From the NCBI GenBank assembly GCA_002296185.1, contig DBHM01000027.1:158867-222866 (forward strand): a stretch of DNA of 64,000 nucleotides. Reading direction: 5' to 3'. Below, in pieces: positions 5,969-45,309 of the stretch. The translations under genes and the position numbers were made by a program. This stretch comes from Alphaproteobacteria bacterium UBA828 (GTDB taxonomy: Bacteria > Pseudomonadota > Alphaproteobacteria > UBA828). The notes beneath the pieces are model-generated. The model ran no database searches. It saw only the letters and a list, made by a program, of their open reading frames with translations, and was not told where the DNA came from. How positions within the stretch are numbered: position 1 is the stretch's first letter; every line of letters begins with the position of its first letter.

Positions 5969-6187
5969 AAAGCAATATGGGATTACTTAAACGTTCAAAA
6001 GAGTTTGTAAGTAGAGAATACAAAAAAGCCCCCAGAACGCAGCTAGTATATAAATGATTGGGAAAATGAATTAATATTGCTTTTATCTGAAACAGCTAAT
6101 TGGTCGACCATTTGGAACAATGTTTGTACAGCCTGATGGGGTTGTTTAGAATAGATTAAAAATCTTGTAATAGCATTCTATTCATAG

Positions 6188-7513
6188 CTATTTGGGAAGC
6201 CTCAGCTGAGCTCTCAGTCCGCCCAAATTGCTATCTGACATACGTATATCCCCGCCATGGGATCGAGCAACATCAAGAGCAATTGCAAGTCCTAGTCCTG
6301 CGCCTCCAGTATTGGGATTGCGGGCTTCGTCAATTCGGTAGAAGGGTTTAAAGATAGATTCTTTTTGATTATCAGGTACACCTGGCCCATCATCTTCTAT
6401 ATTAATTTCTATATTATCTTTGTTTACCTCTACACTTACTCTTACATTTTTACCAAAATGTGTAGCATTCTCCATAAGATTGGTAAGGCATCTCTTCATT
6501 GCTGATGGCCTTACGGAAATTAAAATTTCTTTATGTGGAATATAAGTTAAGTTATTACTATTATTTTTTATATTTTCAACTACAGTTTTAATTATTAATC
6601 CAAGGTTTGCTTCAACTGGAGACTCGCCTTCTTGCCCCTGAGCGAATGATAAATATTCATTTATCATTTTTTCCATTTCGATAATATCGCGGTTTATTTC
6701 ATCTATTCCAGGAGATTCTTTATTGGTATTTTCTATTATAGCTAATTGTAATTTCATTCTAGTAAGAGGTGTACGAAGATCATGACTAACACCAGCAAGC
6801 ATTTCAGTGCGCTGGTCAATATATCTTCTTATCCTAGCGCGCATTTTGATAAACGCATTTGCTGCCTGACGTATTTCTTTGGCACCCGAAGGTTTAAAGC
6901 CTGAATAATCATGACCTTTACCAAAAGCATTTGCAGCATCTGCAAGCCGCCTAATAGGTCTAATCTGGTTACGAAGAAACAGAATAGCTAGTGCGCTAAC
7001 AATGATGAATGTGCCAACCATCCAAAGTACAAATATATATGTCGTAGAGCTATCCAGTCTTTTACGCGGAGTTAAAATATCCATAACTTCATCACGTAGC
7101 TGTATACGAATTGATAGTTTTCCATCAGGGCGTCGAGTATCTATATGAAATGGAAAATACATTCTTTCAGATATCGCTGAATGGAGTACTCTGTCGATTA
7201 TACGTGAGCTTTTCTTTGGCGGCTCATTAGGGAGTATAGCCCCTTTCTCCAAGCTAACATCTATTTGCATTTCTCTAAGGGCAGCATCAAGTATCCAAGC
7301 TCTTTTTTTAGGATCTGACTCAATCTGTAACTCCCGCATGACGTAAGCTACATCGCCAGCAATTCCAAGCGCGAGTCTTCTGCTAACTGTATCCCAATGA
7401 CGCTCATAAAATATGTATGTAATGACACATTGAAGTAATATTAGTGGTACTAGCATTATGAGCAAAGAACGCCAGAATAAACCTCTTGGTGCTAAATTTT
7501 TTAATCGTGCCAT
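6188..7513 (-). CDS. Two-component sensor histidine kinase (EnvZ-like)
   Basis: Two TM segments, a HAMP-like region, an H-box (SHDLRTPLTRM) and an HATPase_c G-box (GGAGLGLAI). Forms an operon with the OmpR-like regulator. Confidence 0.85.
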   Translation of the reverse strand: MARLKNLAPRGLFWRSLLIMLVPLILLQCVITYIFYERHWDTVSRRLALGIAGDVAYVMRELQIESDPKKRAWILDAALREMQIDVSLEKGAILPNEPPKKSSRIIDRVLHSAISERMYFPFHIDTRRPDGKLSIRIQLRDEVMDILTPRKRLDSSTTYIFVLWMVGTFIIVSALAILFLRNQIRPIRRLADAANAFGKGHDYSGFKPSGAKEIRQAANAFIKMRARIRRYIDQRTEMLAGVSHDLRTPLTRMKLQLAIIENTNKESPGIDEINRDIIEMEKMINEYLSFAQGQEGESPVEANLGLIIKTVVENIKNNSNNLTYIPHKEILISVRPSAMKRCLTNLMENATHFGKNVRVSVEVNKDNIEINIEDDGPGVPDNQKESIFKPFYRIDEARNPNTGGAGLGLAIALDVARSHGGDIRMSDSNLGGLRAQLRLPK

Positions 7514-7517
7514 CTAA

Positions 7518-8210
7518 TCAATCCGATCGCATTAAATAGCCTGCCCCCCAAATAGTTTTCAGGTAGCGTGGGTCTTTTGGGTTAGGTTCGATCTTACGTC
7601 TTAAGCGAGTTATTTGAACATCTAACGCTCGTCCTGTAGGATCAACGCCAGAATGCGAGCATAATTCACTTCTGCTGATTGTCTCGTTGGGACGGGTGGT
7701 GAAAAGCTTTAAAAGGTCAACTTCTGATCTAGTGAGTTTTATAATTTCAGATCCGTGTTTTAAGGTTTCAGTAATATTATCAAATATATATTCTCCAAAT
7801 TTTAGTGATAATGGAGAGTCTTTAGCTGACTCATTATAATTATCACTTCTTTTGAGAATGCTTGTAATTCGAAGAAGTAATTCTCTTGGTTCAAAGGGTT
7901 TTGTTAGATAATCATCCGCCCCACTTTCAAATCCAGAAATACGGTCTTCTGTTTCGGACATTGCTGTAAGAAGCAGAACTGGAATATCATTTGTTTTACG
8001 AAGATCTTTTGTGAAATTTATTCCAGTTTCTCCTGGCATCATAACATCAAGAACCATGATATCAAATTCCATTCCGGAGAGAAATCTTCGTGCATCAGGG
8101 GCTGATGATGCGACAGTGACGCGATACCCATTATCAGTCAGATATCTTTTAAGCAGATCTCTTAGTCTATCATCATCATCAACGATTAAAACATGTGGTC
8201 CGCATATCAT
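7518..8210 (-). CDS. OmpR-family DNA-binding response regulator
   Basis: The receiver domain is close to E. coli OmpR (VLIVDDDDRLRDLLKRYL vs ILVVDDDMRLRALLERYL) and is followed by a winged-helix C-terminus. Confidence 0.85.
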   Translation of the reverse strand: MICGPHVLIVDDDDRLRDLLKRYLTDNGYRVTVASSAPDARRFLSGMEFDIMVLDVMMPGETGINFTKDLRKTNDIPVLLLTAMSETEDRISGFESGADDYLTKPFEPRELLLRITSILKRSDNYNESAKDSPLSLKFGEYIFDNITETLKHGSEIIKLTRSEVDLLKLFTTRPNETISRSELCSHSGVDPTGRALDVQITRLRRKIEPNPKDPRYLKTIWGAGYLMRSD

Positions 8211-8276
8211 ATAATCACCAGTTAAAGCTATTTGATGACATTCTTCACCAGAAAAATTATAAAAATAGTCTATGGT

Positions 8277-8798
8277 TTATTTATTATTAGTAAAACGTTC
8301 ACGATCTACCTCATCGATAATACCTAGTAGGACCTTACGATATCCATCTACAGCATCAGGTCCAGCCTTTCTGTAGGCTTCAGAAAGTAACTTTCTGTGA
8401 ACACCTGCCAAACGATTATCTAAATCATCACCCTTTTGGGTTAATCTTAATAAACGTCGTCGCTTATCTGTATTGCATTTTTGATTTTTAATATATCCAT
8501 CTTCTATTAGTTGTCCTAATACTCGAGATAAGGACTGCTTTGTGATCTTTAGAATACTTAATAATTCAGCCACAGAAATATTCGGATTACGTGCTATAAA
8601 ATATATTACTCTATGGTGGGCCCTACCAAATCCGTAGTTATTTAATATAGTGTCACACTCGGCAGTAAAGTCACGATATGCAAAAAACAGCAGCTCCATT
8701 CCCTCATAGAGCTGGTCTTCACGTAAGAACAAAAGGTTTGTACCGGACTTTATGTCAGCCATGTTGACTGATATGCCGTGCGATGCTAGTGGATGCAA
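8277..8798 (-). CDS. MarR-family transcriptional regulator
   Basis: Winged-helix HTH region (ISVAELLSILKITKQSLSRVLGQLIEDGYI...DKRRRLLRLTQKG). The likely true start is the internal Met (MADIK). Confidence 0.75.
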   Translation of the reverse strand: MHPLASHGISVNMADIKSGTNLLFLREDQLYEGMELLFFAYRDFTAECDTILNNYGFGRAHHRVIYFIARNPNISVAELLSILKITKQSLSRVLGQLIEDGYIKNQKCNTDKRRRLLRLTQKGDDLDNRLAGVHRKLLSEAYRKAGPDAVDGYRKVLLGIIDEVDRERFTNNK

Positions 8799-29116: not shown

Positions 29117-30607
<1,491 letters not shown>

Positions 30608-30693: not shown

Positions 30694-32238
30694 ATGTCAG
30701 AACGAATTTTAATTTTAGATTTTGGCTCACAAGTAACTCAACTGATTGCTCGTCGTGTGCGTGAATCAGGTGTGTATTGTGAAATGAGACCTTACACAAT
30801 GCAAGATAAAGAGATTAAAAAGTTTTCTCCATGTGCAATAATTTTATCAGGCGGGCCTTCATCAATTACTAATTCAAAAGCTCCAAGACCTTCCAAAATG
30901 GTTTTTGAATGCGGTGTACCTGTTTTAGGAATTTGTTATGGGCAGCAAGTTATGTGCGAAACTCTTGGAGGAAAGGTAGAGTCGTCTAGCTCCCGAGAAT
31001 TTGGTAGAGCTGATATGGAAATACTAGAAACATGCGAATTATTTGAGGGAATATGGAGTGTTGCCTCCACTCAAACTGTGTGGATGAGCCACGGAGATCG
31101 TGTGATAGACCTACCTGAGGGGTTTAGGGTTGTCGCTGCTTCCAAAGGTGCTCCTATGGCTGCGATAGCTGACGATACCCATAAATTTTACGGTGTTCAG
31201 TTTCATCCTGAGGTTGTCCATACTCCAAGTGGTGGAGCGCTAATTAAGAACTTCGTTCAAAGAGTAGCCAAGTGTGATGGATCCTGGACTATGTCAGCAT
31301 TCAAGAAGCGGGCTATTAAAGCAATAAGAGATCAGGTGGGATCAGGTAGAGTCGTGTGTGGGTTGTCTGGGGGAGTCGATTCAAGTGTTGTTGCTGCTTT
31401 ATTACATCAAGCTATAGGCGATCGGCTAACATGTGTCTTCGTAGACTCTGGGCTTCTTAGGCTTGGAGAAGCAGATGAAGTAGTCAATATTTTCAAGAAG
31501 GAACTTAATGTCCATCTGTTACATAAGAATGCTTCTCTTGAATTCCTATCTGCTTTAGCGGGGGTATCAGACCCTGAGGAAAAGCGTAAGATTATTGGAT
31601 CGACATTCATTGATGTTTTTGAGCGCGCGGCCCTTGAAATTGGAGGAGCAGATTTTCTGGCCCAAGGAACATTATATCCCGATGTTATAGAGAGTGTTTC
31701 TGTTTCTGGTCCAAGTGCAGTAATTAAATCTCATCATAATGTAGGCGGATTACCGGAGAGGATGAATTTACAACTTGTCGAACCTGTTAGAGAGCTTTTT
31801 AAAGATGAGGTACGTGAATTAGGACGTGAGCTTAATCTTCCAGAATCATTGATTGGACGTCATCCATTCCCAGGTCCAGGTCTTGCAATCAGGATACCTG
31901 GGGAGGTAACGGAAGGTAAAGCTAATTTATTAAGAAAAGCAGATGCTATTTTTATTGATGAAATTCGTTCCGCAGGTTTGTACGATATTATTTGGCAGGC
32001 TTTTACTGTATTATTACCAGTTCGTACTGTAGGTGTTATGGGAGATGCTCGCACTTATGATAATGTATGTGCACTTAGAGCTGTCACTTCAACAGATGGA
32101 ATGACAGCTGACTTTTACCATTTTGACATGGATTTTCTCGGGAAAGTTTCTAATAGAATTGTAAATGAGGTGCCTGGTATTAATAGAGTAGTTTATGATG
32201 TAACTAGCAAGCCACCAGGTACCATTGAGTGGGAATGA
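30694..32238 (+). CDS. guaA: GMP synthase (glutamine-hydrolysing)
   Basis: GATase domain (ILILDFGSQ...GICYG), ATP-PPase SGGVDSSV motif, and a conserved C-terminal dimerisation domain. Confidence 0.9.
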
Positions 32239-32266
32239 CAAGTAAATTTATTAGGGAGAATGAAAC

Positions 32267-33721
32267 ATGAGTAAGGTAATCAAGGGTGGAACAATTGTTA
32301 CAGCTGATAGAATCTATATGGCTGATGTGCTGGTTGAAAAGGATATCATCGCTGATATTGGCACCGGGCTTTCGGGAGATGAAACACTTGATGCCAGCGG
32401 TTGCTATGTAATGCCGGGTGGTATTGACCCACATACACATCTCGATATGCCGTTCATGGGAACCTACACCTCAGATAATTTTGAGTCCGGTACTAGGGCA
32501 GCACTATCTGGCGGTACCACAATGGTAGTGGATTTCTGTCTACCGGCACCTGGGCACTCACTTCTGGAGGCAATTCAGGCCTGGGACAATAAATCTTCTC
32601 TGGCGACAACTGACTACTCTTTCCATATGGCAATCACTTGGTGGGGCGAGGAGGTGTTCAATGAAATGTCAGCTGTTGTAGATAAGGGTATTAATACCTT
32701 TAAACACTTCATGGCCTATAAGGGCGCGCTGATGGTAGATGACGATGAAATGTATGCATCATTCCAGCGTTGTGCAGAATTAGGAGCAATGCCACTAGTT
32801 CATGCCGAAAATGGAGATGTCGTTGCACAGTTGCAGGCAAAGTTGATGGCTGAGGGGAATAATGGTCCCGAGGCGCATGCCTATTCTCGCCCGCCCGAGG
32901 TCGAAGGCGAGGCAACCAACAGAGCTATCATGATTGCCGATATGGCTGGCGTTCCGCTTTATGTTGTGCATGTTTCCTGTGAGCAGGCGCATGAGGCCAT
33001 CCGACGGGCGCGGCAGAAGGGTATGCGGGTCTATGGTGAACCGCTGATCCAGCATTTGCTGCTTGATGAGGGCGAATATGCCAATGATGATTGGGATCAT
33101 GCTGCGCGCCGCGTGATGTCACCGCCTTTCCGAAATCAACAGCATCAGGACAGCCTTTGGGCCGGTTTACAGGCAGGCAGCCTGCAGGTCGTTGCCACTG
33201 ATCATTGTGCTTTCACAACTGAGCAGAAGCGCTATGGTGTTGACGATTTCACCAAGATTCCGAATGGTACAGGTGGCCTTGAAGACCGTTTGCCGCTGCT
33301 TTGGACGCATGGAGTGAATACTGGCCGCCTTACGATGAATGAATTTGTTGCTACTACATCGACCAATATTGCCAAGGCGCTGAATATGTATCCACGCAAG
33401 GGTGCTATTCTTGAGGGTGCAGACGCAGATATTATCGTTTGGGATCCTAAGCGCGAAAAGACAATCAGTGTCGATAGCCAGCAATCAGCCATTGATTACA
33501 ATGTATTTGAGGGATTTAAAGTCAAGGGTCTGCCGCGTTTCACTATGACCAGGGGCTATGTCGCAATCAGTGAGAACGAGATCATGACGCGAGAGGGTCA
33601 TGGAAAGTTCGTTTCGCGTGAACCTTTCGGCGCAACCAACAAGGCGCTTTCGCAGTGGAAGGCATTGACAGCACCTCGAAAGGTGATCCGTGATCCAGCG
33701 AAGATGCCAGCTGGTGTATAA
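32267..33721 (+). CDS. hydA: Dihydropyrimidinase / D-hydantoinase (cyclic amidohydrolase)
   Basis: 484 aa with a metal-binding GGIDPHTH motif and long collinear similarity to D-hydantoinases (SRPPEVEGEATNRAI...VVHVSCEQA). GC content rises to about 57% through the gene. Confidence 0.85.
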   Translation: MSKVIKGGTIVTADRIYMADVLVEKDIIADIGTGLSGDETLDASGCYVMPGGIDPHTHLDMPFMGTYTSDNFESGTRAALSGGTTMVVDFCLPAPGHSLLEAIQAWDNKSSLATTDYSFHMAITWWGEEVFNEMSAVVDKGINTFKHFMAYKGALMVDDDEMYASFQRCAELGAMPLVHAENGDVVAQLQAKLMAEGNNGPEAHAYSRPPEVEGEATNRAIMIADMAGVPLYVVHVSCEQAHEAIRRARQKGMRVYGEPLIQHLLLDEGEYANDDWDHAARRVMSPPFRNQQHQDSLWAGLQAGSLQVVATDHCAFTTEQKRYGVDDFTKIPNGTGGLEDRLPLLWTHGVNTGRLTMNEFVATTSTNIAKALNMYPRKGAILEGADADIIVWDPKREKTISVDSQQSAIDYNVFEGFKVKGLPRFTMTRGYVAISENEIMTREGHGKFVSREPFGATNKALSQWKALTAPRKVIRDPAKMPAGV

Positions 33722-33857
33722 CTAGCATGCGAACAACGATTAAGGTGGAGTTAATTAAATATATTAAAAACAATAACTAGTTGCTAGTTTCAAAAATGAT
33801 TTCTAGAAGCTTACTTAGATTTCGGGTTTGAAGTGAAATTCTTGGGGAGTATTAGTC

Positions 33858-35726
33858 TTGCGAAATTTTAGAACAGTTCTTTTCGACAAAAATCCTGGGC
33901 GGAATGCACAGACGGTCGGCATTGCGCGAGAACTGGGCACCGATATTGAACTCATTCACGAGCCATCGGTTGGTGTCGTGGGCAACAAAGGCGATTCTCA
34001 GTGTTATCTCGGCGTACAGCGCAAGGTTGAAGCAATTCACGATTGTCTGCGTAGCAGTATTGGACAGAGTGATGGGCAGATGCGCGTCCGTTTGGTGCAA
34101 CCAGAATATTCCGTCGCAACCTCTGATGGTATGCGAAACGGTACGCGCGAGATGCGCTATTCGCTAATCGGCCGTGAAGTCACCAACGATACGATAACGG
34201 AACATCTCAGTGCTAGCGGACTTGAGGGTACCGTTGCCGTAGTCGCTTGTGACAAGCCACCTGTTGGAACACTGGCTGCCCTACTGGAGCATGACCGACC
34301 GTCGATAATTATGTCGGACGGACCGATCCGCCCGGGCCTAGACTCCGTCACTAAAGAGCGGATCGACATTATAACCGGATTCCAAGTCGCCGGGAGCTCC
34401 GATGAGGAGATGAAGAAGCGCGTCGCTTGCGAAGCGTGCCCAGGCTATGGCAGCTGCGGAGGCATGTTTACGTATAACACAATGCAAACCTTCATTGCAG
34501 TTGTCGGTATGGAGCCACTGCACATGGTTTCGCCGCCCTCGGACGACCCACGGCGTATCGAACATTATCCAAGCGAGTTGATATCTTACTTAGATAGGCT
34601 TATAGCCAATGACCTTTCGCCACGTAAGATTGTCAATCGCGATTCCATTCGCAATGCGATGATTGTGGCCATGGCGATTGGTGGCTCAACTAATGTTCTA
34701 CTGCATGGTCCAGAGATTGCTCGTGCCGCAGGATTTAGCAGCTTTACGAAAGACATCATGTCGCCGGAGGAGTTCAATCACCTCTCTCAATACGTAGTGC
34801 CAGTGCTGATCAATGCGCGGCCATTTGGGCAATATTCTATGGTCGACATTGATGATAAGGGTGGTATTCAAGTTATCGTCAAGGAGCTACTAGAGGCAGG
34901 ATTACTAAACGGTGACGTCATGACTTGTACAGGAGAAACCTTGATTGAACAGGTAGCGCGCCTTGATCCTCCGGCGCCAGACGGTGAGGTCATTTACTCG
35001 GTTGAGAAGCCCTTCAAGCCTACGGGGGGCCTTCGCGTGCTCGGTGGAAATTTATCACCTGAGTTTAGTGCTGTCTTAAAACTTGCTGGCGTTGAGGGGG
35101 GGCTAGAAAACAACGTCTTCAATGGCAAGGCACGGGTCTTCAATAGTGAAGTCGAACTGCTTGATACACTGGAGAACCAATCGGAAGTCTTCAAAAACAA
35201 CGACATGATCATTGTCCGCTACGAAGGCCCAAGTGGGGCACCAGGTATGCCAGAAATGCTCGACTCTACCTCGCGTATCACTACCTTATGCCGAGAGCAA
35301 GGGATCGTTGTGGGCTTAATGACCGACGCGCGTTTCTCCGGTGGTTCCGTCGGTCTCGTGATCGGTCATGTTGGTCCGGAAGCGGCTCTCGGGGGTCCAA
35401 TTGCCTATATAGAAGACGGCGACGACATTGTCGTTGACTTAAATAGGAACGAAATAAACTGCCTACAGCTAGGCAATGAATCGATATTATCCGCTCGTAA
35501 GGCAAGCTGGGATAAGGCTGTCGCGGATAATGGCGACATGCATCCGGCAATTGGTGATGTAGATACACGCTTGTTACATAGGATGCGGCGTTCGGCTGTC
35601 TCGGCTGTATTTGGCGCTGGCATGCATCCCGACCGAGAGCTCTGGGTCCACGCTGCACGCAAGCCAGAGATAACTGGATTCGTACCATCAAACAAGTACC
35701 GGGAAGGCTCTGCGAAAGCGTTCTAG
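33858..35726 (+). CDS. IlvD/EDD-family dehydratase (dihydroxy-acid or sugar-acid dehydratase)
   Basis: CDK motif (VVACDKPPVG), Fe-S motif CEACPGYGSCGGMFT, and TDARFSGGSVGLVIGHVGPEAALGGPIA. It has a TTG start, no obvious RBS, and high GC (about 55%). Confidence 0.75.
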   Translation: MRNFRTVLFDKNPGRNAQTVGIARELGTDIELIHEPSVGVVGNKGDSQCYLGVQRKVEAIHDCLRSSIGQSDGQMRVRLVQPEYSVATSDGMRNGTREMRYSLIGREVTNDTITEHLSASGLEGTVAVVACDKPPVGTLAALLEHDRPSIIMSDGPIRPGLDSVTKERIDIITGFQVAGSSDEEMKKRVACEACPGYGSCGGMFTYNTMQTFIAVVGMEPLHMVSPPSDDPRRIEHYPSELISYLDRLIANDLSPRKIVNRDSIRNAMIVAMAIGGSTNVLLHGPEIARAAGFSSFTKDIMSPEEFNHLSQYVVPVLINARPFGQYSMVDIDDKGGIQVIVKELLEAGLLNGDVMTCTGETLIEQVARLDPPAPDGEVIYSVEKPFKPTGGLRVLGGNLSPEFSAVLKLAGVEGGLENNVFNGKARVFNSEVELLDTLENQSEVFKNNDMIIVRYEGPSGAPGMPEMLDSTSRITTLCREQGIVVGLMTDARFSGGSVGLVIGHVGPEAALGGPIAYIEDGDDIVVDLNRNEINCLQLGNESILSARKASWDKAVADNGDMHPAIGDVDTRLLHRMRRSAVSAVFGAGMHPDRELWVHAARKPEITGFVPSNKYREGSAKAF

Positions 35727-35891
35727 GTGAGCCCAGAGCGATTTAGTAGGAATAGATTTTAGAGTGTCATAACCTGGTCTGGCGGGTTTGGTCCTGGTGC
35801 TTGATACAATTGTGGAAAGAATCCGGCAACTACGCCTTTTTCTTTACTAGTCTTGAATACATAAGCGACTTTCATAGAAATCTCGAAAAAA

Positions 35892-35914
35892 ATTACTATT
35901 TAATGAATAGTAAT
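35892..35914. promoter_or_regulatory. 23-bp perfect palindrome ATTACTATT-TAATG-AATAGTAAT upstream of the small membrane protein and photolyase-related genes; candidate operator
   Basis: Inverted repeat read directly from the sequence, about 35 bp upstream of the first ATG of the 35947 ORF. Confidence 0.3.
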
Positions 35915-35946
35915 ACTTTGAGTCTTATCCATTGGCTTAATAATAA

Positions 35947-36462
35947 TTGTATATGAAAGCTATTATATTTTTTTTATTTAACATAATACAGATAGGTAAA
36001 AATATAGAATTCATGATGTTCTCAATCTTTGCTCAAATTAATAATATTTTTAAACATAAAAATACTTGGAAGGTCGCCTCTAAGAATACTTTATGGTGTC
36101 TTTTAGGTTGCTCTATAGGGGATCTTGGTACAATAGCTTTTTTTCAGTTTATGGAAATTGATTGGCCAGTCTTTTCAATAATGGTTCTAGCTATTGTTAA
36201 TGGTTTGATTACGTCAATTCTTTTGGAAACTCTTATCCTTACAAGGCAGATGAATCTTAAAAACTCTTTTAGAACTGCAGTTGGAATGTCATTCATTTCA
36301 ATGATTGCAATGGAAATTGCCATGAATATTACAGATTTAATTTTCACGGGTGGTGCAGTTTTAAATTGGTGGGTAGTCCCATTAATGTTGATAGCGGGTT
36401 TTCTTACCGCAGTACCCTACAATTACTGGCGTCTTAAAGCTTTTGGAAAATCATGTCATTAA
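35947..36462 (+). CDS. Small integral membrane protein (4-5 TM) with a conserved-looking WCLLGCSIGDLG motif
   Basis: 171-aa hydrophobic ORF in a very AT-rich island. The start may be the downstream MMFSIF. Function unknown. Confidence 0.45.
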   Translation: MYMKAIIFFLFNIIQIGKNIEFMMFSIFAQINNIFKHKNTWKVASKNTLWCLLGCSIGDLGTIAFFQFMEIDWPVFSIMVLAIVNGLITSILLETLILTRQMNLKNSFRTAVGMSFISMIAMEIAMNITDLIFTGGAVLNWWVVPLMLIAGFLTAVPYNYWRLKAFGKSCH

Positions 36463-36564
36463 ATTAATAATGAATTTGAAATCGTATATTATATGGATAC
36501 ATATAGTTATAAATATACATAAGATTAATTTTGAAAAAATTGTATAATTTTAATTAAGAATAAC

Positions 36565-38076
36565 ATGACAAATAATTTTTTTGTAATTTTAGGAAATCAA
36601 CTATTTGATCCCAAAATTTTAAAGTCCAAAGGTTGTGGGCATGTTTTTATGGCAGAAGATTTTGGTCTATGTAAATATGTAAAGCATCATAAGCTAAAAA
36701 TCTATTTGTTCTTATGTTCAATGAGAGAATATAGAGATGAATTAAAGAGGTATGGTTTCAAAGTATCTTATTTTTCTCTTGAAGATAGAACTGATAACCT
36801 CAATTACCCAAAATTTTTAATAGATTTTGTAGAAAAAAATAATATATCTAAGATCAATTTCTTTGAAATAGAAGACCATTTCTTTGAAAAAGAAATCTTT
36901 GATCAAATGAAGAAGAAAGGCCTAAAATTACAACTCCATAAATCGCCAATGTTTATGTTTTCACGTAATGAATTTATTTCACTTCACGAAGGGAAAAAAA
37001 ACTTTAGACTTTCTAATTTTTATAAAATAGGTAGAAAAAAATTTAATATACTTATGAATGAAAATTGCGAACCAATTGGAAAAAAGTGGTCATTTGATCA
37101 TGAAAATAGAAAAAAAATACCCAAAAATGTTTCAATCCCAAAACTTCAGCCTCCCAGTCGAACTAAGTACCACAATCAGGTTATTCAATTAATAGAGCAG
37201 CATTTTAGCGATCATCATGGCAGATTAGATAATATATGGTTTCCTGTAGAGCGGGGAGGTGTTGACAGGCATCTTGAATTTTTTCTGGCTCACAAGCTTA
37301 TATATTTTGGGGTATATGAGGACGCAATACGGCATGAAGAAAATTTTTTATTTCATAGCTGTATTAGTCCATTTCTAAATATCGGGTTAATTACACCAGA
37401 CTCATTATTAGAGAGAGTGTTGGAGTTATTTAATAAGGGGTATGCCCCGATTAACTCCATCGAAGGATTTGTGAGGCAAGTATTAGGGTGGCGTGAGTTT
37501 ATACGTGGAATATACCAAATGAAGGGCTCAGAACAGCAGCAAAGCAATTTCTGGGCGCATAAACGTTATTTAAGTGAAAGTTGGTATAATGGTTCGACCG
37601 GGATTGTACCTTTGGATGATTCTATTCAATCGGCAATAAAAGATGGATATAATCATCACATACCTAGGCTTATGGTAATCGCTAATTTGATGAATTTGAG
37701 CGAGATCGATCCAAGGAATATTTATAAATGGTTCATGGAAATGTATATTGATTCGTCAGACTGGGTAATGATACCCAATGTATTTGGAATGGCAACGTTT
37801 GCTGATGGGGGTCTGATATCAACTAAGCCATATTCATGCAGTTCAAATTATATACTTAAAATGAGTAATTATAAAAAGGGAAACTGGTGTAAAGTAGTCG
37901 ATGGATTGTACTGGCGTTTTATTGATAAGCATCAAAAATTTTATAAGTCTAATCCCCGTCTTTCGTTTCAAGTAAAAATGCTAGAAAGAATAGATATTGA
38001 AAGAAAAAAAGAAATTTTCCAATGTGCAGAAATTTTTTTGACTAAAAACACATATTATTCTTCAGAGTTTCTTTAA
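36565..38076 (+). CDS. Cryptochrome/photolyase-family protein, COG3046 (PhrB/CryB-like, deoxyribodipyrimidine photolyase-related)
   Basis: N-terminal VILGNQLF motif and a C-terminal FAD-binding region (HHIPRLMVIANLM...DWVMIPNVFGMATFADGGLISTKPY...NYILKMSNY), matching COG3046 proteins of about 500 aa. Confidence 0.65.
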   Translation: MTNNFFVILGNQLFDPKILKSKGCGHVFMAEDFGLCKYVKHHKLKIYLFLCSMREYRDELKRYGFKVSYFSLEDRTDNLNYPKFLIDFVEKNNISKINFFEIEDHFFEKEIFDQMKKKGLKLQLHKSPMFMFSRNEFISLHEGKKNFRLSNFYKIGRKKFNILMNENCEPIGKKWSFDHENRKKIPKNVSIPKLQPPSRTKYHNQVIQLIEQHFSDHHGRLDNIWFPVERGGVDRHLEFFLAHKLIYFGVYEDAIRHEENFLFHSCISPFLNIGLITPDSLLERVLELFNKGYAPINSIEGFVRQVLGWREFIRGIYQMKGSEQQQSNFWAHKRYLSESWYNGSTGIVPLDDSIQSAIKDGYNHHIPRLMVIANLMNLSEIDPRNIYKWFMEMYIDSSDWVMIPNVFGMATFADGGLISTKPYSCSSNYILKMSNYKKGNWCKVVDGLYWRFIDKHQKFYKSNPRLSFQVKMLERIDIERKKEIFQCAEIFLTKNTYYSSEFL

Positions 38077-38238
38077 ATTTTTTACTGGATATTTTTGGAT
38101 TTTTCATGAAGAAGAAGTGGTTTTTATAAGATATTAATTTAAGTCTATTATCACTATAGAATGTAATGGTTGTGTGTGGTTGAAATAAAATTATGAGACG
38201 GCTAGGGTGTAAGAAGTATTCCTTGAAGGATTAAATCA

Positions 38239-39651
38239 ATGTCAGTGCTACTTGATCAAAACAAAAACTATAATGCACAATTTGGACCAATCTTTAGATC
38301 ATCAGCAATTTTTTATATTCCTCGTGATGTTAAGACGACTATAACTGTTTCCAATTACTGGGATTTTAAAAACAATTTAGAAGTAGGGCTATTATTTTCA
38401 ATACGTAAACTTAGTGGAGAATTAGTTGAGAGACGAGAGCTATACTTTAATGATGGATTAGTTATTAATGAGAGTAAATGGCCTATCGAAGAGGGTTCTG
38501 TCGAGGTGGAGGCATTCGGTAATAAAAACCTTCGTATACCTTATGCGGCTGTCATGGGAGTATATGAAACAGAAGCTTCGATTACTATGGTTCACTCTTA
38601 TGGGAGAAACCACAACTTAATAGAAATAGAAGATCGGAGTTCCTTAACCTCTGGACGCGAGAGCTGTTGGACTATTCGTCAAGATAATGATGTTGAGAAT
38701 AAAGCGGTTTTTCATAATGGTCATCTAGGTGTACCTAATCAAATAGCAAAATTTACGTTAACAAATGTTGAGGGAGCGGAGCATTCTACAGATTTCAGTA
38801 TGCCCCTTTTAGAACCGTTTGAAACATTTGTTTTTAACTTGTCTGAAATAGTTCCACAATATAAGGATTTTCTTAGCGGCTCAGACGGTTGGGGGACATT
38901 ACATTTTGAAAATAAAACTGCCTTCACGCGACTACTTTTAGTTTGGCAAAATAAATTAACAGGGGAGTTACAAGTAACTCATTCAAATTTTGATTATTCT
39001 GAGATTGAGACTAATAAGATAGAGGCAACTAAGCCAGCAATTATGAAATGGCCTTCAATATTAACTCAATCAGATTCTGGGCAAGTCGTGCTATATCCAA
39101 AATTTTCCAAAGGTATATATAAAATAACTTCAAATAAAAGTATAACTGAAACTGATAAAGGTTTGTTCATTAAAACTAAGGATATTGATGCTCTTGAATT
39201 TACGTCCTTAGATAAAAACACAATACCTTCACGAATAGTAACTGGAATCACTTATCAAAAAGAAAAAAATACTTTACCATTAGAGTGTTCCATGGGAATT
39301 GTTCACGAAAAAAGACCGCCAAAAAGATTTCACTGGGCTGTTGTCTCAAAAAAGTTCAAGTCACGTCTATTCTTCAATGCCTTTACAGAAATATATCAGG
39401 TCCCTGATGACTTGTTTATCGTATTTAGACTTTATACGGCAAAGAGAAATCAATATGTGGAAAAACGTTTGGATATTCAATCTCTGAATGAAATCCCAGA
39501 TGGTATTTATATAGATGAATTATTTGCCAATATAGATCAATCAGGTCATGAGGATTATTGTTATGTTTCAATGTTCTCAAACTTTGGTGGATTGCTAATG
39601 TATTCTTCTATGCAAAAAAAATCTTCTATGACTATAGAGCATTCATTTTAG
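38239..39651 (+). CDS. Hypothetical protein (470 aa, orphan, predicted beta-rich and soluble)
   Basis: Long uninterrupted ORF with a good RBS (AAGGATT) and host-island-like codon usage. It has no recognisable motifs, no TM segments and no signal peptide. Confidence 0.5.
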   Translation: MSVLLDQNKNYNAQFGPIFRSSAIFYIPRDVKTTITVSNYWDFKNNLEVGLLFSIRKLSGELVERRELYFNDGLVINESKWPIEEGSVEVEAFGNKNLRIPYAAVMGVYETEASITMVHSYGRNHNLIEIEDRSSLTSGRESCWTIRQDNDVENKAVFHNGHLGVPNQIAKFTLTNVEGAEHSTDFSMPLLEPFETFVFNLSEIVPQYKDFLSGSDGWGTLHFENKTAFTRLLLVWQNKLTGELQVTHSNFDYSEIETNKIEATKPAIMKWPSILTQSDSGQVVLYPKFSKGIYKITSNKSITETDKGLFIKTKDIDALEFTSLDKNTIPSRIVTGITYQKEKNTLPLECSMGIVHEKRPPKRFHWAVVSKKFKSRLFFNAFTEIYQVPDDLFIVFRLYTAKRNQYVEKRLDIQSLNEIPDGIYIDELFANIDQSGHEDYCYVSMFSNFGGLLMYSSMQKKSSMTIEHSF

Positions 39652-39683
39652 TCTATTACTTCTTAAGTAAGAATTTTTTCAAT

Positions 39684-40349
39684 TTAGCGATAGATTCCAT
39701 CCCACTCAGTTTTTGAAACCTCTACATTTCCGTCGTCATCAACTGTAGGTCGTTGTAGTACAAAAGTTGTTTCAGGTGTAATTACTCCATAATCCATATA
39801 GCCCATTCGAGCTAAAGGACGCATCTCTGATGTATTTACAATACCATCTTTGATAAATTTATCATTTATATAGACCCCAACTACTTGACCTATAGTCATA
39901 AAATGGCCTTTGTCACCTTGATCAACTACATCTGGTAATTCTATAGTTTTCCAGTGTTTGCACTCTAGAGCGGCTGGAGATCGAGAAACGCGGGGTGGCT
40001 TCACAAATTGTGACTCTGTTGTTTCAAGATTTGCAAGAGAGAATTCATTTGCTAAATAGTCAACAGGTGCTGAGCTAATATTCATACCTTCACGGGTATC
40101 CCACGTAGATAAAGAACACGTAAATTCGCCATTATCTTCAATATTGCGCAGACTGTCTTTTCGGTCTACAGAAGTAAACATCACATAATTTGGATCCGCA
40201 CCTACTGCATTGAAAAAACTATAAGGTGCAAGGTTTAATATGCCGTCGTTAGAAATAGTTGAAATCCAACCAATGGGTCTTGGTGCAACTAAGGCTTTGA
40301 AGGGGTCATGCTTTAAGCCGTGGTTATTCTCTATACTATCATAGTGCAT
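39684..40349 (-). CDS. Flavin reductase-family protein (FMN-binding split barrel)
   Basis: 221 aa with the flavin-reductase-like domain pattern (LAPYSFFNAVGADPNYVMFTS). Confidence 0.7.
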   Translation of the reverse strand: MHYDSIENNHGLKHDPFKALVAPRPIGWISTISNDGILNLAPYSFFNAVGADPNYVMFTSVDRKDSLRNIEDNGEFTCSLSTWDTREGMNISSAPVDYLANEFSLANLETTESQFVKPPRVSRSPAALECKHWKTIELPDVVDQGDKGHFMTIGQVVGVYINDKFIKDGIVNTSEMRPLARMGYMDYGVITPETTFVLQRPTVDDDGNVEVSKTEWDGIYR

Positions 40350-40443
40350 GATATTATTCCTAAAATACGATTAATAAGTTAAATTATTTTATTAGGCAAT
40401 GACTCGAGTAACTTATCTATAATAATACTTAATTCTGCAATAT

Positions 40444-41496
40444 TTAGTTATGGTGCGTTTCCTCAAACCCTCCAAGAATAGCTATAAGATTGTCACCTAG
40501 AATATCTGATATATACCCTCCTTCTTGTATCATAAGAGTAGGTAGTTTAATTCTTCCTATAGCCTGGCCAATTCTATAAAAGCCATCTGTTGTAATACTC
40601 ATAAAAGCAAGTGGATCACTTTCTGATATATCTAGACCAAGCGCTATAATTAATATTTCAGGTTTAAAAGTTATAATCTCATCTATCGCGAAATTTAATG
40701 TGTCTAGATATGATTGATCAGCTGTATTCTTTTCAAGTGGCAAGTTAATGTTATAGCCCTTTCCCATGGCTAAGCCTGCCTCATCTGAGTATCCAGAAAA
40801 AAATGGATAGTAGTCAGATGGATCACCATGAAGTGAAACAGTTAAAACATCAGACCGGTTGTAAAATATACCTTGAGTACCATTTCCATGGTGTACATCA
40901 ATATCCAATATAGCTATTTTTTTTGCCCCATTTTCAATAAAACATTGCCCGGCTATAGCGGTATTATTAAAAAAACAAAACCCTCCTGCTTGATCTGAGA
41001 AAGCGTGGTGACCTGGAGGTCTGCAAAGAGAATAAGCAAAGGTATTTTTTTTGCTATTTTTAGCATCATCGATTAAAGCAAGTGCTCCAGATACGGCAAC
41101 ATTAGCTGATAATATGGCCCCATCATATGTCCCTTTTCCTATCGGGCATGCAGTATCTGCTTGATAATATCCAGCGAGCCCTATGAGTGATTTTGGTAAT
41201 AAACTCATATTTCGACCTGGGTGTATATTGGGAATAACTTCATTACTGCTATCTGGAAGATTTTGCCACAGACTCCATGAATTTTTAAGGAAATTTATAT
41301 AGCCCTTATCATGTATTGCTTCTATAGGTTTTGTGCCATGATCCTGAGACTCTATTAAATTGTGTCCAGCTGCTCTTGCTGATGCTTCTAAGATTTCCGC
41401 TCGTTTTGGTTGTTCAGGATTATTTTTTAGTTGACCTCTAGAAATAAAGGTTTGTGGTGAATGGATAGTATGATTAGGGGAATAAAACACTCGCAT
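40444..41496 (-). CDS. Histone deacetylase-family amidohydrolase (AcuC / acetylpolyamine amidohydrolase-like)
   Basis: HDAC signatures: PGHHA..GGFCFFNN, DIDVHHGNGTQ, and the Zn ligands D-H-D. Confidence 0.8.
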   Translation of the reverse strand: MRVFYSPNHTIHSPQTFISRGQLKNNPEQPKRAEILEASARAAGHNLIESQDHGTKPIEAIHDKGYINFLKNSWSLWQNLPDSSNEVIPNIHPGRNMSLLPKSLIGLAGYYQADTACPIGKGTYDGAILSANVAVSGALALIDDAKNSKKNTFAYSLCRPPGHHAFSDQAGGFCFFNNTAIAGQCFIENGAKKIAILDIDVHHGNGTQGIFYNRSDVLTVSLHGDPSDYYPFFSGYSDEAGLAMGKGYNINLPLEKNTADQSYLDTLNFAIDEIITFKPEILIIALGLDISESDPLAFMSITTDGFYRIGQAIGRIKLPTLMIQEGGYISDILGDNLIAILGGFEETHHN

Positions 41497-41552
41497 TATA
41501 AATCTATCCTAAAACTAGTTGACTGGTGTTTGTTTTCTAATAGAGGTATTAT

Positions 41553-41568
41553 TTAACAATTAATTAAC
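41553..41568. promoter_or_regulatory. Perfect CtrA-box-like motif TTAA-N7-TTAAC in the divergent promoter region between the HDAC-like and DMT genes
   Basis: TTAACAATTAATTAAC read directly from the sequence. AT richness raises the chance of a random match. Confidence 0.25.
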
Positions 41569-41667
41569 ATGTTTTATTATAATCGTTGAACGAAATAGTT
41601 ATGTTTTGAAAAATGAGTATAGTGTTTTCATTACTTATTAATAGTCCACAAGTATAGGCTTATCTTT

Positions 41668-42570
41668 TTGAATATAAATATTAATAAATTATTTATCCCG
41701 ACAGCATTGGTCTTATTAGGAGGGATAACCTTTGGTAGTATTTTCTCTGCAAATATCTTTGCTTATGAGTCGGGATTGCCTCACTTCTCATATGTTTTCT
41801 GGCAAATTTTTCTTGGTTCTTTAATTCTATTAATAATATCCTTAGCAACTAAGACTTTCCCCAAATTCACATGGGGGAATATTAGGGCTTACATATTTGT
41901 TGCTGTCCTTGGGCTAATAGTTCCAGTTATTGTATTTAATGTCGTGGCAGATAAGTTGCCCCCTGGTATCATCACTCTTTCTGTAGCATTAATCCCAGCT
42001 AGTACTTATTTACTCTCCCTGCTTATTAAGGCAGATAAGTTTCGCGTAGTAAGTATATTAGGAGTTATCATAGGATTCGGGAGTGTTTTATTAATTGTTT
42101 TACCCCAGGGTAGTTTGCCAATTGAGGGTGCTGAAATCTGGGTCATTTTTTCTTTACTCGTTCCAATATCTGCTGGGACTAATAATGCTTTTAGTGCGCT
42201 AGTTATACCTCCAAACACACAGACTTTTGGGCTAGCAACAGGAACCATGTTAGTAGCATCAATAATTTTACTTCCAATAAGCCTGGCTTATGATGGACTT
42301 CATTTTTTTGGTAACTATGGATGGGAATCTATAGGTTCCACCCTGTGGGCTTCAATTGTATGGGTGACGATTTACATGTGTTTTTTCGAAATAGTCAAAA
42401 GAACAAGCGGTCTTTTTTATGCTCAGGTTAATTATATCATCGTTGCAGCTGGCATTATATGGTCATGGGCTATCTTTGCAGATGTTCTGAGCGCTTGGGT
42501 ATGGGGTGCTGTAGCTATGCTATTCGTTAGCCTTGCACTTGTGAATTTGGGAACAAAAGTAAAGGTATAA
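41668..42570 (+). CDS. DMT-superfamily (EamA-like) transporter
   Basis: 300-aa protein with about 10 TM segments and a two-repeat EamA-like architecture. Confidence 0.6.
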   Translation: MNININKLFIPTALVLLGGITFGSIFSANIFAYESGLPHFSYVFWQIFLGSLILLIISLATKTFPKFTWGNIRAYIFVAVLGLIVPVIVFNVVADKLPPGIITLSVALIPASTYLLSLLIKADKFRVVSILGVIIGFGSVLLIVLPQGSLPIEGAEIWVIFSLLVPISAGTNNAFSALVIPPNTQTFGLATGTMLVASIILLPISLAYDGLHFFGNYGWESIGSTLWASIVWVTIYMCFFEIVKRTSGLFYAQVNYIIVAAGIIWSWAIFADVLSAWVWGAVAMLFVSLALVNLGTKVKV

Positions 42571-42709
42571 TAATTTTTTTGTATTTAAATTTTTAATAAA
42601 TTTGATGACTATAATCTGTTAATGCATAGATTATTCGATATTGTTTTGGAATATATACAAATAGAAGTATTTTTGAGATTACATCAAATATCTCTCAGGA
42701 GAATATATA

Positions 42710-44131
42710 ATGGATACTGATTTACTAATCAATGGACAGATAGTCAGCGGTGCTGGAGATTTAGTTCCTGTTATAAATCCAGCAACTGGAGAAGCAATAT
42801 GTAATGTTCAAGAGGCGAATGAGGAGCAGGTTAACGCCGCTGCTAGGGCTGCTGCTGAGGCGTTCCCGAAGTTTTCACTAAAAACACCAGCAGAGCGTTC
42901 ATCTATGTTATTTGATCTTGCAGCTAGATTAGAAGCCGAGATAGATGAATTTGCTAAATTAGAGTCACTTGATACGGGAAAACCTATTTCGGCATCGCTG
43001 GATGAGATGGAAGCCTGTGTTGATGTGGCTCGATTTATGGGTGGTGCAGTTAGGTCGATGAATGCAGTTGCTGCTGGGGAATATATGGAGGGTTTTACTT
43101 CAATGATTCGCCGAGACCCTGTGGGAGTGGTTGCTAGTATAGCTCCGTGGAACTATCCTTTAATGATGGCCTTATGGAAGTTAGCCCCACCATTAGCTGT
43201 GGGTTGTTCTATGGTGCTTAAACCATCAGAACTTACTCCCTTGACTACACTCAAATTAGCGAAAATTCTTAACGATATTTATCCTCCCGGTGTTGTAAAT
43301 ATAATTTCAGGTAGAGGTGATACAACAGGAAATAATCTAATAAATAATAATAACATTGATTTTATATCTTTAACTGGCTCAATTAGGACTGCCAGTCGTG
43401 TGCTGGAAGCAGCATCAGGGACGATCAAAAAAACTCACTTGGAGCTTGGTGGCAAGGCTCCGGTCATTATTTATGAAGATGCAGATCTTGATAAGGTGGT
43501 TGCAGATCTTAAGGCATTTTCTTTCTATAATGCTGGGCAGGATTGTACCCAGCCATGTCGCTTATATGTAGACAATAAGATTTTTGATAATTTTGTTGCA
43601 GATTTTGGTTCTTCAATTTCAAAAATTAAAGTAGGTAATCCAGAAGATAAAGATGTTGAGATGGGGCCTATAATTACAAAGAATCAGTTTGACCGAGTTC
43701 AGGGTATTGTTCAGGATGTCCAAAAGAGCGAACATTTACAAATAATAACTGGTGGGACTAAATATAAAGGAAGTGGATTTTTCTTTGAGCCAACGTTGAT
43801 AACCGAAACTGAACAGAGCGATCATATTATAAATGAAGAGATATTTGGTCCTGTGGTAACAGTAAGTAGATTCCAGAGTACAGAAGAGGCAATTCAGTGG
43901 GCCAATGATTCACGATATGGATTATCTTCTTCTGTTTGGACAAGGGATATTTCAAAAGCAATGAAAACTGTGGCACGACTTAGGTACGGTGTAACTTGGG
44001 TTAACACGCATCTAGTGGGTGTTTCAGAGATGCCTCATGGTGGACTAAAAGCGTCAGGTTATGGAAAAGATATGTCGGTTTATGCGCTTGAGGATTATAC
44101 TGTGCCTCGTCATATAATGATTTCTCATTAG
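42710..44131 (+). CDS. NAD-dependent aldehyde dehydrogenase (aminobutyraldehyde/betaine-aldehyde dehydrogenase-like)
   Basis: ELGGKAP and catalytic Cys region ([14 protein letters not shown]), with full-length ALDH architecture. It contains an Asn-rich insertion ([11 protein letters not shown]). Confidence 0.85.
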
Positions 44132-44205
44132 TGCTTATTATTTAATGATTTAGCATTAGTGTTTATTATTGCCTTATTAACTCGTTTCAAAACTGAGGGG
44201 TAGTA

Positions 44206-45309
44206 ATGTTGGAGAGAATACGAATATTAAATGATAGAGTTTTGCGCAGTAGTTTTTTATCACGCTTACAAGTGATTCTTGGTGTTTGTATTTTTACTAT
44301 TATTTTAAGTGCTTGCTCTCAAACAGAAAATTATTTGTCTATAGCTGATCAAGTTGAAACTCAGAAATTTATAGAAACTCTTCCTGAGAGTGCGCGTCCT
44401 GGGGAAGGTTTTCAATTTAGTTACTTTAATTCCGTTCATGGGTACAATATCAGGTATGGAAGTTCTGAAATCAAACAACCACTAGGAACTATTATTTTAG
44501 TGCCGGGACAGTCAGAGTTTTCTGAATCATATTTTGAACTTATTAATGATATTAATGATATTGGTTATAGTGTGTGGATTATGGATTTTTACGGACAAGG
44601 TGGTTCCGATCATCTACTGAGTGACAACGCCAGAGCGGACAACAATTTTCATAATGATGTTGATGACTTAAGTCAGTTTGTAAACGGTATAGTTAAAAAC
44701 ACACAAGAAAGCCCTTTGATTATTTTGGGACATTCAATGGGTGGTCACATTGTACTATCAGCAATTCTAGAAAAAAAATTAAGAGTTGATGGGGCTGTGC
44801 TATCTTCTCCAATGATTAAAATAAAAACCGGTGCAATACCTCACGGGATTACTGAACTTATTGCATCTATAGGTTCTGCCTTAGGCGGCGATTGGTGGAT
44901 AGCGCCTGGGCAAAAAGAGTGGGTTGAGAAACTAAATTATAATCCAGAAGATAATGTTAACACATCTGATTCCGAAAGATCACTTCTTAAAGAGAGCTGG
45001 AGAAAGCATACAGAGCATACTCGTAAATCATATGCAGTGACTTTTGGTTGGCTAAAAGGTTATTCTGAGTCAAGGAAAACCATCTTATCTAATTCTCAAG
45101 CAACAGAGATAACAACCCCTATATTGATGACAGTCGCTGGTGAAGATGCTTTGGTAATTCCTGAAGATAGTCTGGAATTATGCAAAAGATTAATTTCCTG
45201 TGAATCTATATTTTATAATAATTCAAGACATGAATTATATCTCGAGAAAGATAATTTGCGGAATAAGTGGATGAGAGACATATTTCTTTGGATAAACCGA
45301 TCATTTTAG
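44206..45309 (+). CDS. Alpha/beta-hydrolase lipoprotein (lysophospholipase-like)
   Basis: Lipobox (ILSAC), nucleophile elbow GHSMGG, and a C-terminal Asp/His region. Confidence 0.65.
   Translation: MLERIRILNDRVLRSSFLSRLQVILGVCIFTIILSACSQTENYLSIADQVETQKFIETLPESARPGEGFQFSYFNSVHGYNIRYGSSEIKQPLGTIILVPGQSEFSESYFELINDINDIGYSVWIMDFYGQGGSDHLLSDNARADNNFHNDVDDLSQFVNGIVKNTQESPLIILGHSMGGHIVLSAILEKKLRVDGAVLSSPMIKIKTGAIPHGITELIASIGSALGGDWWIAPGQKEWVEKLNYNPEDNVNTSDSERSLLKESWRKHTEHTRKSYAVTFGWLKGYSESRKTILSNSQATEITTPILMTVAGEDALVIPEDSLELCKRLISCESIFYNNSRHELYLEKDNLRNKWMRDIFLWINRSF

Follow-up and report, generated by a model that had tools for sequence, protein, structure and literature searches.

Which process does a bacterial protein serve when it is conserved across several classes and matches no known family? 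The question is raised by a gene, here called X, at positions 38239..39651 (+ strand) of a 64,000-nucleotide stretch (the window) of contig DBHM01000027.1 from Alphaproteobacteria bacterium UBA828. An earlier note on this DNA had taken the 470-residue product for an orphan, and had proposed it as a novel partner or effector of the photolyase-related gene that lies upstream. We find that X belongs to an unannotated protein family whose members recur within operons for the synthesis of legionaminic acid (Leg), a sialic-acid-like nonulosonic acid. Judged from the sequences and a structural model, X may be a cytoplasmic accessory protein of Leg surface-glycan synthesis that binds a pathway sugar and carries out acid-base chemistry on it; we consider this reading plausible, if somewhat short of probable.

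Identification of the X family

The open reading frame (ORF) of X starts with ATG and encodes 470 amino acids followed by a stop codon. A sequence resembling a ribosome-binding site, GAAGGA (38225-38230, + strand), can be read 8 nt before the start codon, so the long clean ORF with a good ribosome-binding site described previously stands. The maximum Kyte-Doolittle mean over 19 residues is 0.89, indicating that there is no transmembrane segment. The N-terminus has no signal-peptide character, again as described, and is conserved from residue 1 across the family. The GC content of X is 34%, compared with 39% for the window. Relative to the window's other proteins, X is modestly enriched in Asn, Lys, Tyr and Phe; the enrichment in Ile that had been listed with Asn, Lys and Tyr was not found (7.4% against a mean of 8.4%).

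Scanning X against Pfam (E<=1) gave no match except a sub-threshold YcxB fragment, and none was obtained with NCBIfam. Sequence and profile searches of the PDB returned chance-level matches only (desmoglein, herpesvirus gB), in agreement with the absence of a recognisable domain reported before. No Rfam elements were found around X, and a promoter and terminator scan of the same region was uninformative.

X is nevertheless not an orphan. A search of 5.8 billion proteins with a cut-off of E<=1e-3 identified 382 homologues; among the matches listed, nearly all were full length (460-495 aa), with identities of 40-71%, and none carried a Pfam domain or a name beyond 'hypothetical'. A profile search of 1.84 billion cluster representatives (clusters at 50% identity) yielded 601 matches, 398 of them at E<=1e-10 and 164 at E<=1e-30. 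The best 150 of these 601 had lengths of up to 541 aa and no fused domains, and ten distant members compared with Pfam gave no match. X is thus a member of an unannotated family of proteins of about 460-540 aa.

In assemblies representing one genome per species we found 26 X loci from five classes, a count limited by the search patterns used. Carriers in the Alphaproteobacteria are SAR11 single-cell genomes, Stappia, Brevundimonas and Qipengyuania, and those in the Gammaproteobacteria are Granulosicoccus, Porticoccaceae and Coxiellaceae; others belong to Comamonadaceae (Betaproteobacteria), Planctomycetaceae and Oligoflexia/Silvanigrella. The exact X protein of the window was present in 34 data blocks, mostly Tara Oceans assemblies, and its DNA was identical in the three copies checked.

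X is full length in about 109 loci. When it was compared with relatives at 64-71% identity, the ratio of non-synonymous to synonymous divergence (pN/pS) was 0.24-0.33 in three of four comparisons, with pS saturated. The comparison with locus L038 gave 0.52; the L038 product is one residue longer, and this ungapped comparison may be out of register. X is a real gene under purifying selection. On one metagenome contig (L040:2448-3860) a homologue (69% identical) is broken into two ORFs, 123 and 325 aa long, which may reflect either a frameshift or pseudogene, or an assembly error. Neither outcome that the earlier note had named as a refutation was observed: the profile searches gave no confident match to a known family, and relatives carry the ORF undisrupted. 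X therefore stands as a real, conserved protein outside the curated families. No description of an X homologue was found in the literature searched on legionaminic-acid clusters and SAR11. The family has no annotation, no curated model and no solved relative.

X homologues often lie in legionaminic-acid operons

The comparison of genomic neighbourhoods was based on 110 non-redundant X loci (six with the exact protein, 26 from genomes and 80 from metagenomes, minus duplicates and plus the window). ORFs were called in all of them, their products were clustered with BLASTP, and the families present within 8 kb of X were counted. DegT aminotransferases and PtmE-like nucleotidyltransferases, which formed one joint cluster, were present in 35 loci. 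A cytidine monophosphate (CMP)-sugar synthetase was found in 33, a NeuB-type synthase in 26, LegB/PseB-type dehydratases in 26, a hydrolysing 2-epimerase in 15 and a hexapeptide acetyltransferase in nine. At least one nonulosonic-acid gene was near X in 52 of the 104 loci with any flank, and in 35 of the 54 loci with at least six other genes. X was directly adjoined by a pathway gene in 28 of the 104 loci, and the most frequent neighbour within two genes of X was the CMP-sugar synthetase (21 times). The association was retained after de-replication of X, with 31 of 51 informative clusters at 70% identity and 15 of 21 at 55%. The neighbourhood of homologues, to which the earlier note had pointed as a check, therefore reveals Leg biosynthesis genes as conserved partners.

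In the compact operon of locus L008, X precedes a complete set of Leg pathway genes, which encode a CMP-synthetase, a NeuB-type synthase, a NeuC-type epimerase, a NeuD-family acetyltransferase, a PtmE-like nucleotidyltransferase, LegB and LegC. The LegB product scored 455 bits against its NCBIfam model, and the LegC product 445 bits, above the cut-off. Eleven aminotransferases from the clusters were typed in the same way, and LegC was the best match for ten of them. Five exceeded the LegC cut-off, and a sixth scored 419.5 where 420 was required; the cut-off for PseC was reached by none of the eleven. The preference for LegC indicates that the pathway is of the legionaminic type.

X is frequently sandwiched between pathway genes of its own strand. 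In L029 the ORF calls for the CMP-synthetase (5293-6243), X (6186-7673) and NeuB (7657-8688) overlap. The order in L023 and L032 is CMP-synthetase, X and a TylF-type methyltransferase, and in the SAR11 loci L016 and L031 it is a LegC-like gene, in part followed by a formyltransferase-like gene, then X and the CMP-synthetase. Close orthologues of the X of the window also lie within Leg clusters (L038, 69% identity; L007, 64%). Placement of X on the same strand within operons containing LegB, LegC, NeuB and CMP-synthetase genes recurs across unrelated lineages. X shares operons and strand with LegB, LegC, LegH, LegG, LegI, LegF and PtmE, and is homologous to none of the core Leg enzymes as represented in NCBIfam. 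By an operational, context-based definition, X is a component of Leg gene clusters. The more variable co-neighbours are sugar-tailoring enzymes, among them TylF-type O-methyltransferases, formyltransferase-like proteins, polysaccharide deacetylases and a WbuX/HisF/HisH amidotransferase set, together with two proteins described below, one of the DHDPS/NanA family (seven loci) and one with Rieske and metallo-beta-lactamase-fold domains (three loci).

Domain organization and conserved residues

An AlphaFold2 model of X, computed from a 48-member alignment, had a pLDDT of 91.7 and a pTM of 0.91. It is all-beta, with about 40 strands and only short helices, which upholds the beta-rich character predicted earlier. 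Strands were assigned by DSSP of the model, and internal homology was assessed by hhalign of alignment slices. Four domains are predicted, all encoded on the + strand. Domain A (residues 12-131; 38272..38631) is an 8-stranded beta-sandwich that ends in VHSYGR and contains the invariant H119 and R123. Domain B (residues 132-258; 38632..39012) is a second such sandwich, which starts at C143-W144, ends in QVTHSNFD and contains the invariant H248, and also R231. Domain C (residues 259-358; 39013..39312) is an inserted beta domain of about ten short strands, with the invariant R332 and an E349-C350-S351 motif. Domain D (residues 359-470; 39313..39648) is a third 8-stranded sandwich, which starts at H365-W366, where W366 is invariant, and closes with a strictly C-terminal EHSF containing H468.

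Domains B and D aligned with each other over 104 columns (Prob 96.2%, E 2.7e-9), C143-W144 being matched with H365-W366 and QVTHSN with EHSF. Domains A and D aligned more weakly (Prob 48%, E 1.9e-4), with VHSY opposite EHSF and H119 opposite H468. No match was obtained between domain C and any of A, B or D. X therefore contains three paralogous sandwiches of about 115 aa, every one ending in a conserved His-Ser, and the alignment of these endings makes H119, H248 and H468 equivalent.

The 48-member alignment has 57 invariant positions, among them E467, H468 and F470. Residues G60, G86, H119, R123, R231, H248, R332 and W366 are invariant down to 19% identity, and S22, F25, K44, R56, S87, P101, A104, Y109, E141, N160, G161 and H468 are conserved in at least 90% of the sequences. 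Nearly all of the full-length homologues listed end exactly at EHSF (residues 467-470), and such strict conservation of a free C-terminus points to a functional role for the last strand or the terminal carboxylate. A relationship to GH33 sialidases, six-bladed beta-propellers with an invariant Arg triad that includes the Arg of an RIP motif, was also considered, as X has an 'RIP' at residues 99-101; it was rejected, as the Arg varies (R/K) and Foldseek detected no propeller.

The conserved His and Arg residues, and the position of the CMP-nonulosonate synthetase as the commonest neighbour, raise the possibility that X transfers legionaminic acid and has a transferase fold of a new, all-beta kind; it would use the CMP-Leg made by the adjacent synthetase to glycosylate a lipid-linked glycan or a protein. 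Metal-independent sialyltransferases use His and Arg for catalysis and for binding of the CMP-phosphate, and no glycosyltransferase was called in the minimal operon L008, where the partial last ORF was left unscanned. We nevertheless regard a transferase as quite unlikely. Known sialyl and nonulosonate transferases, including Maf, are alpha/beta proteins of the GT-A or GT-B type, and these folds were rejected for X, which is all-beta and has no Pfam glycosyltransferase match. Moreover, X is found among genes for sugar-nucleotide synthesis rather than among glycosyltransferases, ordinary glycosyltransferases are also present in several X loci, and the protein is soluble without a membrane anchor.

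Structural relatives and proposed function

Domain B, modelled alone with a pLDDT of 87.9, was compared with known structures using Foldseek. The best match in the PDB was 1nc7, Thermotoga TM1070 (E 2e-4, prob 1.00, TM-scores 0.59/0.63, root-mean-square deviation 3.6 A). The transducer of sensory rhodopsin from Anabaena (ASRT; 2ii7) followed at rank 5 with prob 0.93, and after it came carbohydrate-binding modules. In Thermotoga, the orthologue of ASRT is TM1070 itself (E 1.7e-16 by phmmer). From internal homology and equal strand count we infer a similar likeness for domains A and D of the model. Structure prediction and Foldseek, also suggested in the earlier note, thus provide a relative for a single domain, and no analogue of the whole protein.

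De Souza, Iyer and Aravind define the ASRAH superfamily, to which ASRT belongs, as an 8-stranded sandwich predicted to bind sugars or related small molecules (PMC2739507). Its domains occur as stand-alone tetramers, or as dyads and tetrads, and their features include a polar-Trp pair where strand 1 starts and a conserved Asn closing strand 2 (PMC2739507). For intracellular ASRT domains, sugar binding and in-cis regulation of sugar operons have been inferred (PMC2739507). A polar-Trp pair is present in domains B (C143-W144) and D (H365-W366) of X and absent in A; conserved Asn residues follow early strands (N39, N160), in a register relative to ASRT that is uncertain. The ASRT signature SHEshChhN occurs in no X domain. 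In common with X, proteins of the ASRT/TM1070 type (PF07100 / DUF1362) have a sandwich of about 115 aa and eight strands, are intracellular and are encoded in sugar-metabolism operons. X differs in that three paralogous copies and an unrelated insert are fused within 470 aa, giving four beta domains in a single chain where ASRAH proteins form tetramers, dyads or tetrads. It also has an invariant His-Ser of its own at the end of each copy, and an Arg set. An association with legionaminic-acid clusters is undescribed for ASRAH proteins, and X has one.

These features can be accommodated in a scheme in which the conserved residues of X would form one or more pockets for a sugar acid of the Leg pathway, if they cluster in space. 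Candidate ligands are free Leg, CMP-Leg and the 6-deoxy-mannosamine precursor. Binding of the ligand's carboxylate or phosphate would fall to the Arg residues, and the His residues would perform acid-base chemistry. Our most specific guess is that X may act between the synthase and CMP-activation, opening the sugar ring and anomerising or epimerising it. The substrate would be Leg, either free or CMP-activated, and a tailoring reaction is a further option. With its six enzymes, the Leg pathway is regarded as complete. We favour an accessory over a core step because the pathway is complete without X and the distribution of X is patchy.

In role, and not in fold, X could be analogous to NanM or YhcH/NanQ of sialic-acid operons, which are likewise accessory, non-essential and beta-rich, and are encoded beside nonulosonic-acid enzymes. 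NanM is a periplasmic Kelch propeller and YhcH a small cupin-like protein, and the fold of X is neither. X also differs in lying in biosynthetic clusters, NanM and YhcH/NanQ being found in catabolic ones. A DHDPS/NanA-family protein of about 320 aa (cluster c12; L061:4028-4990 and six other loci) is encoded near X, within two genes of it in six cases, and it may be a nonulosonate aldolase paired with X. In E. coli, YhcH accompanies NanA, and the placement of X beside this gene in the seven loci resembles that arrangement. Such a pairing would fit an anomerase- or mutarotase-like picture.

Several observations weigh against the proposed accessory function. In about one third of the well-flanked loci there is no nonulosonic-acid gene within 8 kb of X. 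The 64-kb window itself contains none, save one weak SDR/epimerase-like match at 2732-3724, so the link of this particular X to Leg rests on orthology; it stands by itself downstream of guaA, and the Leg cluster that it would serve would be in another part of the genome. The canonical Leg pathway has all its steps even without X, as in L008, and so there is no gap that X would have to fill. Neither a catalytic motif nor an enzyme fold could be recognised in X, and it is an assumption that the conserved His and Arg residues cluster in space. When the whole of X was compared with the PDB and BFVD by Foldseek, only generic matches to tandem Ig, FN3 and macroglobulin domains were returned (TM-score <=0.16). 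PF07100 did not match X (E<=1), and hhalign against a profile of ASRT and TM1070 was sub-threshold (P 0.016 for B and 0.006 for D, Prob 3-6%), and remained so after TM1070 relatives were added. These alignments were in register over about 100 columns, and reversed controls gave P 0.14-0.42. Finally, ASRT-type domains have been proposed to be non-catalytic binders (PMC2739507). Since the support from sequence profiles is sub-threshold, we do not file X as an ASRAH member; on the structural model, it would work like ASRT-type domains and may descend from them.

The likeness to ASRT raises the alternative that X is a non-catalytic sugar sensor or regulatory subunit, which would bind Leg, CMP-Leg or a precursor and exert feedback on the CMP-synthetase or the synthase by contact. 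This would agree with the fold match of domain B to TM1070 and ASRT, with the sugar binding, in-cis regulation and tetrameric, dyad or tetrad organization described for ASRT (PMC2739507) as set beside the four beta domains of X, with the lack of an enzyme fold or motif, and with a Leg pathway that is complete without X. We think it unlikely. A dense charged set is invariant to about 20% identity (H119, H248, R123, R231, R332) and is accompanied by a strict C-terminus, features that fit an enzyme at least as well. The overlap of X with enzyme genes in L029 suggests one-to-one production, which also fits an enzyme at least as well. The homology to ASRT is, in addition, unproven.

The accessory enzymatic reading has a bolder form, in which X would be the first catalytic member of the ASRT-type beta-sandwich world. 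On the model, X would be a pseudo-oligomer in one chain, with an active site, possibly metal-dependent, that is built from the three equivalent His residues and the Arg cluster and acts on Leg or CMP-Leg. It would then be an anomerase or epimerase, or else an all-beta nonulosonate transferase. This we regard as doubtful. To the extent that the model holds, the multi-copy intracellular ASRT-like architecture, the His/Arg set peculiar to X and the specific genomic association would all be new.

Genes upstream of X

The upstream anchors of X in the window are guaB (29147-30607) and guaA (30694-32238), both assigned by Pfam and both on the + strand. Four genes of the same strand lie between guaA and X. 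Directly after guaA (32267-35726) come two genes with a GC content of 50-52%, assigned by Pfam, which encode a 484-aa amidohydrolase and a 622-aa dehydratase of the ILVD/EDD family. Genes for a DUF4396 protein (171 aa) and for the DPRP photolyase-related protein (503 aa, with a weak FAD_binding_7 match) occupy 35947-38076, at about 31% GC. The region is thus not one low-GC island, as had been supposed, and X is not the largest gene in it, the DPRP gene being longer. The latter (36565-38076) does lie immediately upstream of X as stated, at a distance of 162 bp.

This arrangement is the ground for the original proposal that X is a partner or effector of the DPRP flavoprotein, perhaps as a transducer of a light signal by analogy with ASRT and sensory rhodopsin. 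Besides the same-strand proximity in this genome, the ASRT-like fold of one X domain would speak for it. The comparative data speak strongly against it, and we consider the idea extremely improbable. No relative of the DPRP gene was found in the 108 other X loci, so that a photolyase or cryptochrome accessory protein was rejected as an identity for X. The link between ASRT and rhodopsin has itself been argued to be confined to a single lineage of cyanobacteria (PMC2739507). Locus L009 comes from an uncultured alphaproteobacterium and has an X of 51% identity; to either side of X it is syntenic with the window, and it lacks the insertion. Its order is c27-guaB-guaA-X ... c28-c29-c81 (c numbers denoting BLASTP clusters), with guaA directly before X, and that of the window is c27-guaB-guaA-[four genes]-X-...-c28-c29-c81. 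Because guaB, guaA and X are contiguous in L009, the DPRP gene sits in a lineage-specific insertion. The genes for the DUF4396 protein, the amidohydrolase, the ILVD protein, a flavin reductase, an HDAC-like protein and an EamA protein of the window were likewise without relatives in the 108 other loci. The difference in GC content suggests two separate insertion events, and the amidohydrolase and ILVD/EDD genes look like recently acquired foreign DNA. On this comparison of gene orders, the genes at 32267-38076 are lineage-specific insertions outside the X system.

The adjacency to guaBA is itself recurrent. The guaB-guaA pair lies directly upstream of X on the same strand in seven loci from Alpha- and Gammaproteobacteria (the window, L001, L006, L009, L010, L017 and L024), which include Stappia, Granulosicoccus and a Porticoccaceae metagenome-assembled genome; these seven are among the 54 loci with at least six flanking genes. 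The Leg pathway begins from a guanosine diphosphate (GDP)-sugar. The placement could reflect either a hot spot of integration or some functional connection with guanine nucleotides. Integration of genomic islands, GIsul2 among them, at the 3' end of guaA has been documented (PMC9376610). In the window, a search for att-like repeats of this 3' end found none, and Pfam scans of the window genes from 30694 to 45309 found no integrase, so a classical recent island insertion is not supported. The association is compatible with X being a gene of the flexible genome. In Stappia sediminis (L001:9643-9735) a 30-aa rve_3 transposase fragment follows X and hints at mobile DNA there.

Such observations bear on a further alternative, namely that X is carried by hypervariable genomic islands as cargo without a link to Leg, perhaps as a defence or stress gene that has escaped recognition. 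It would then share sites with glycan clusters and the guaA 3' hot spot merely through their location in flexible parts of genomes. The patchy distribution across phyla, the seven loci directly downstream of guaA at a documented island site (PMC9376610), the transposase fragment beside X in Stappia, the heterogeneous GC content between guaA and X in the window, and the one third of loci without nearby glycan genes are all in its favour. We judge it very unlikely, as X repeatedly lies within the Leg operon, on the same strand and with the same two neighbours, in distant lineages. A known anti-phage defence or phage protein was rejected as an identity for X: neither X nor the distant family members scanned matched PADLOC or PHROG models, and X was not found on the viral contigs and plasmids searched. 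In the window, moreover, neither an integrase among the genes scanned nor an att-like copy of the guaA end was found.

Other genes neighbouring X

A protein of about 557 aa that combines Rieske and metallo-beta-lactamase-fold domains is encoded within two genes of X in three loci (L040:556-2226, L091:10253-11920 and L107:1-456). This pair of domains is the architecture of CMP-Neu5Ac hydroxylase, and the protein could represent a hydroxylase of CMP-nonulosonates in bacteria. A TIM-barrel protein resembling xylose isomerase (AP_endonuc_2; cluster c17) is encoded at L078:6848-7726 and in five other loci. Where it was mapped, in SAR11 L031 and on several metagenome contigs, its gene lies between those for the NeuB-type synthase and the LegC-like aminotransferase, and it is absent from the textbook Leg pathway.

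Proteins of 366-506 aa without a Pfam match are encoded near X at L025:3942-5459, L010:9462-10778, L004:10717-12072, L020:9429-10682, L030:6475-7893 and L069:4581-5681. Five of them directly adjoin X, and they may be further uncharacterised components of glycan clusters. The other contexts of X among those scanned were miscellaneous, and included LptF/G, FlhA with acyltransferases, PPDK and RecR.

Implications

Leg and related nonulosonic acids decorate the lipopolysaccharides, capsules and flagella of pathogens and of dominant ocean bacteria, and at the cell surface nonulosonic acids shape recognition by phages and by the immune system. The X family recurs in Leg operons across five bacterial classes without an annotation, a Pfam model or a solved relative. 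Once assigned, the function of X could turn out to be an additional step, or a point of control, in the biosynthesis of nonulosonic acids. Alternatively, X could provide the ASRT-type fold, whose role has been debated since 2009, with its first concrete ligand. If the catalytic reading is true, there would be an unrecognised step in a pathway regarded as fully enumerated, and this in abundant marine bacteria including SAR11. The family could be named, and could be used as an annotation marker of Leg-type glycan islands. X is thus a solid lead for the glycobiology of marine and other Gram-negative bacteria.

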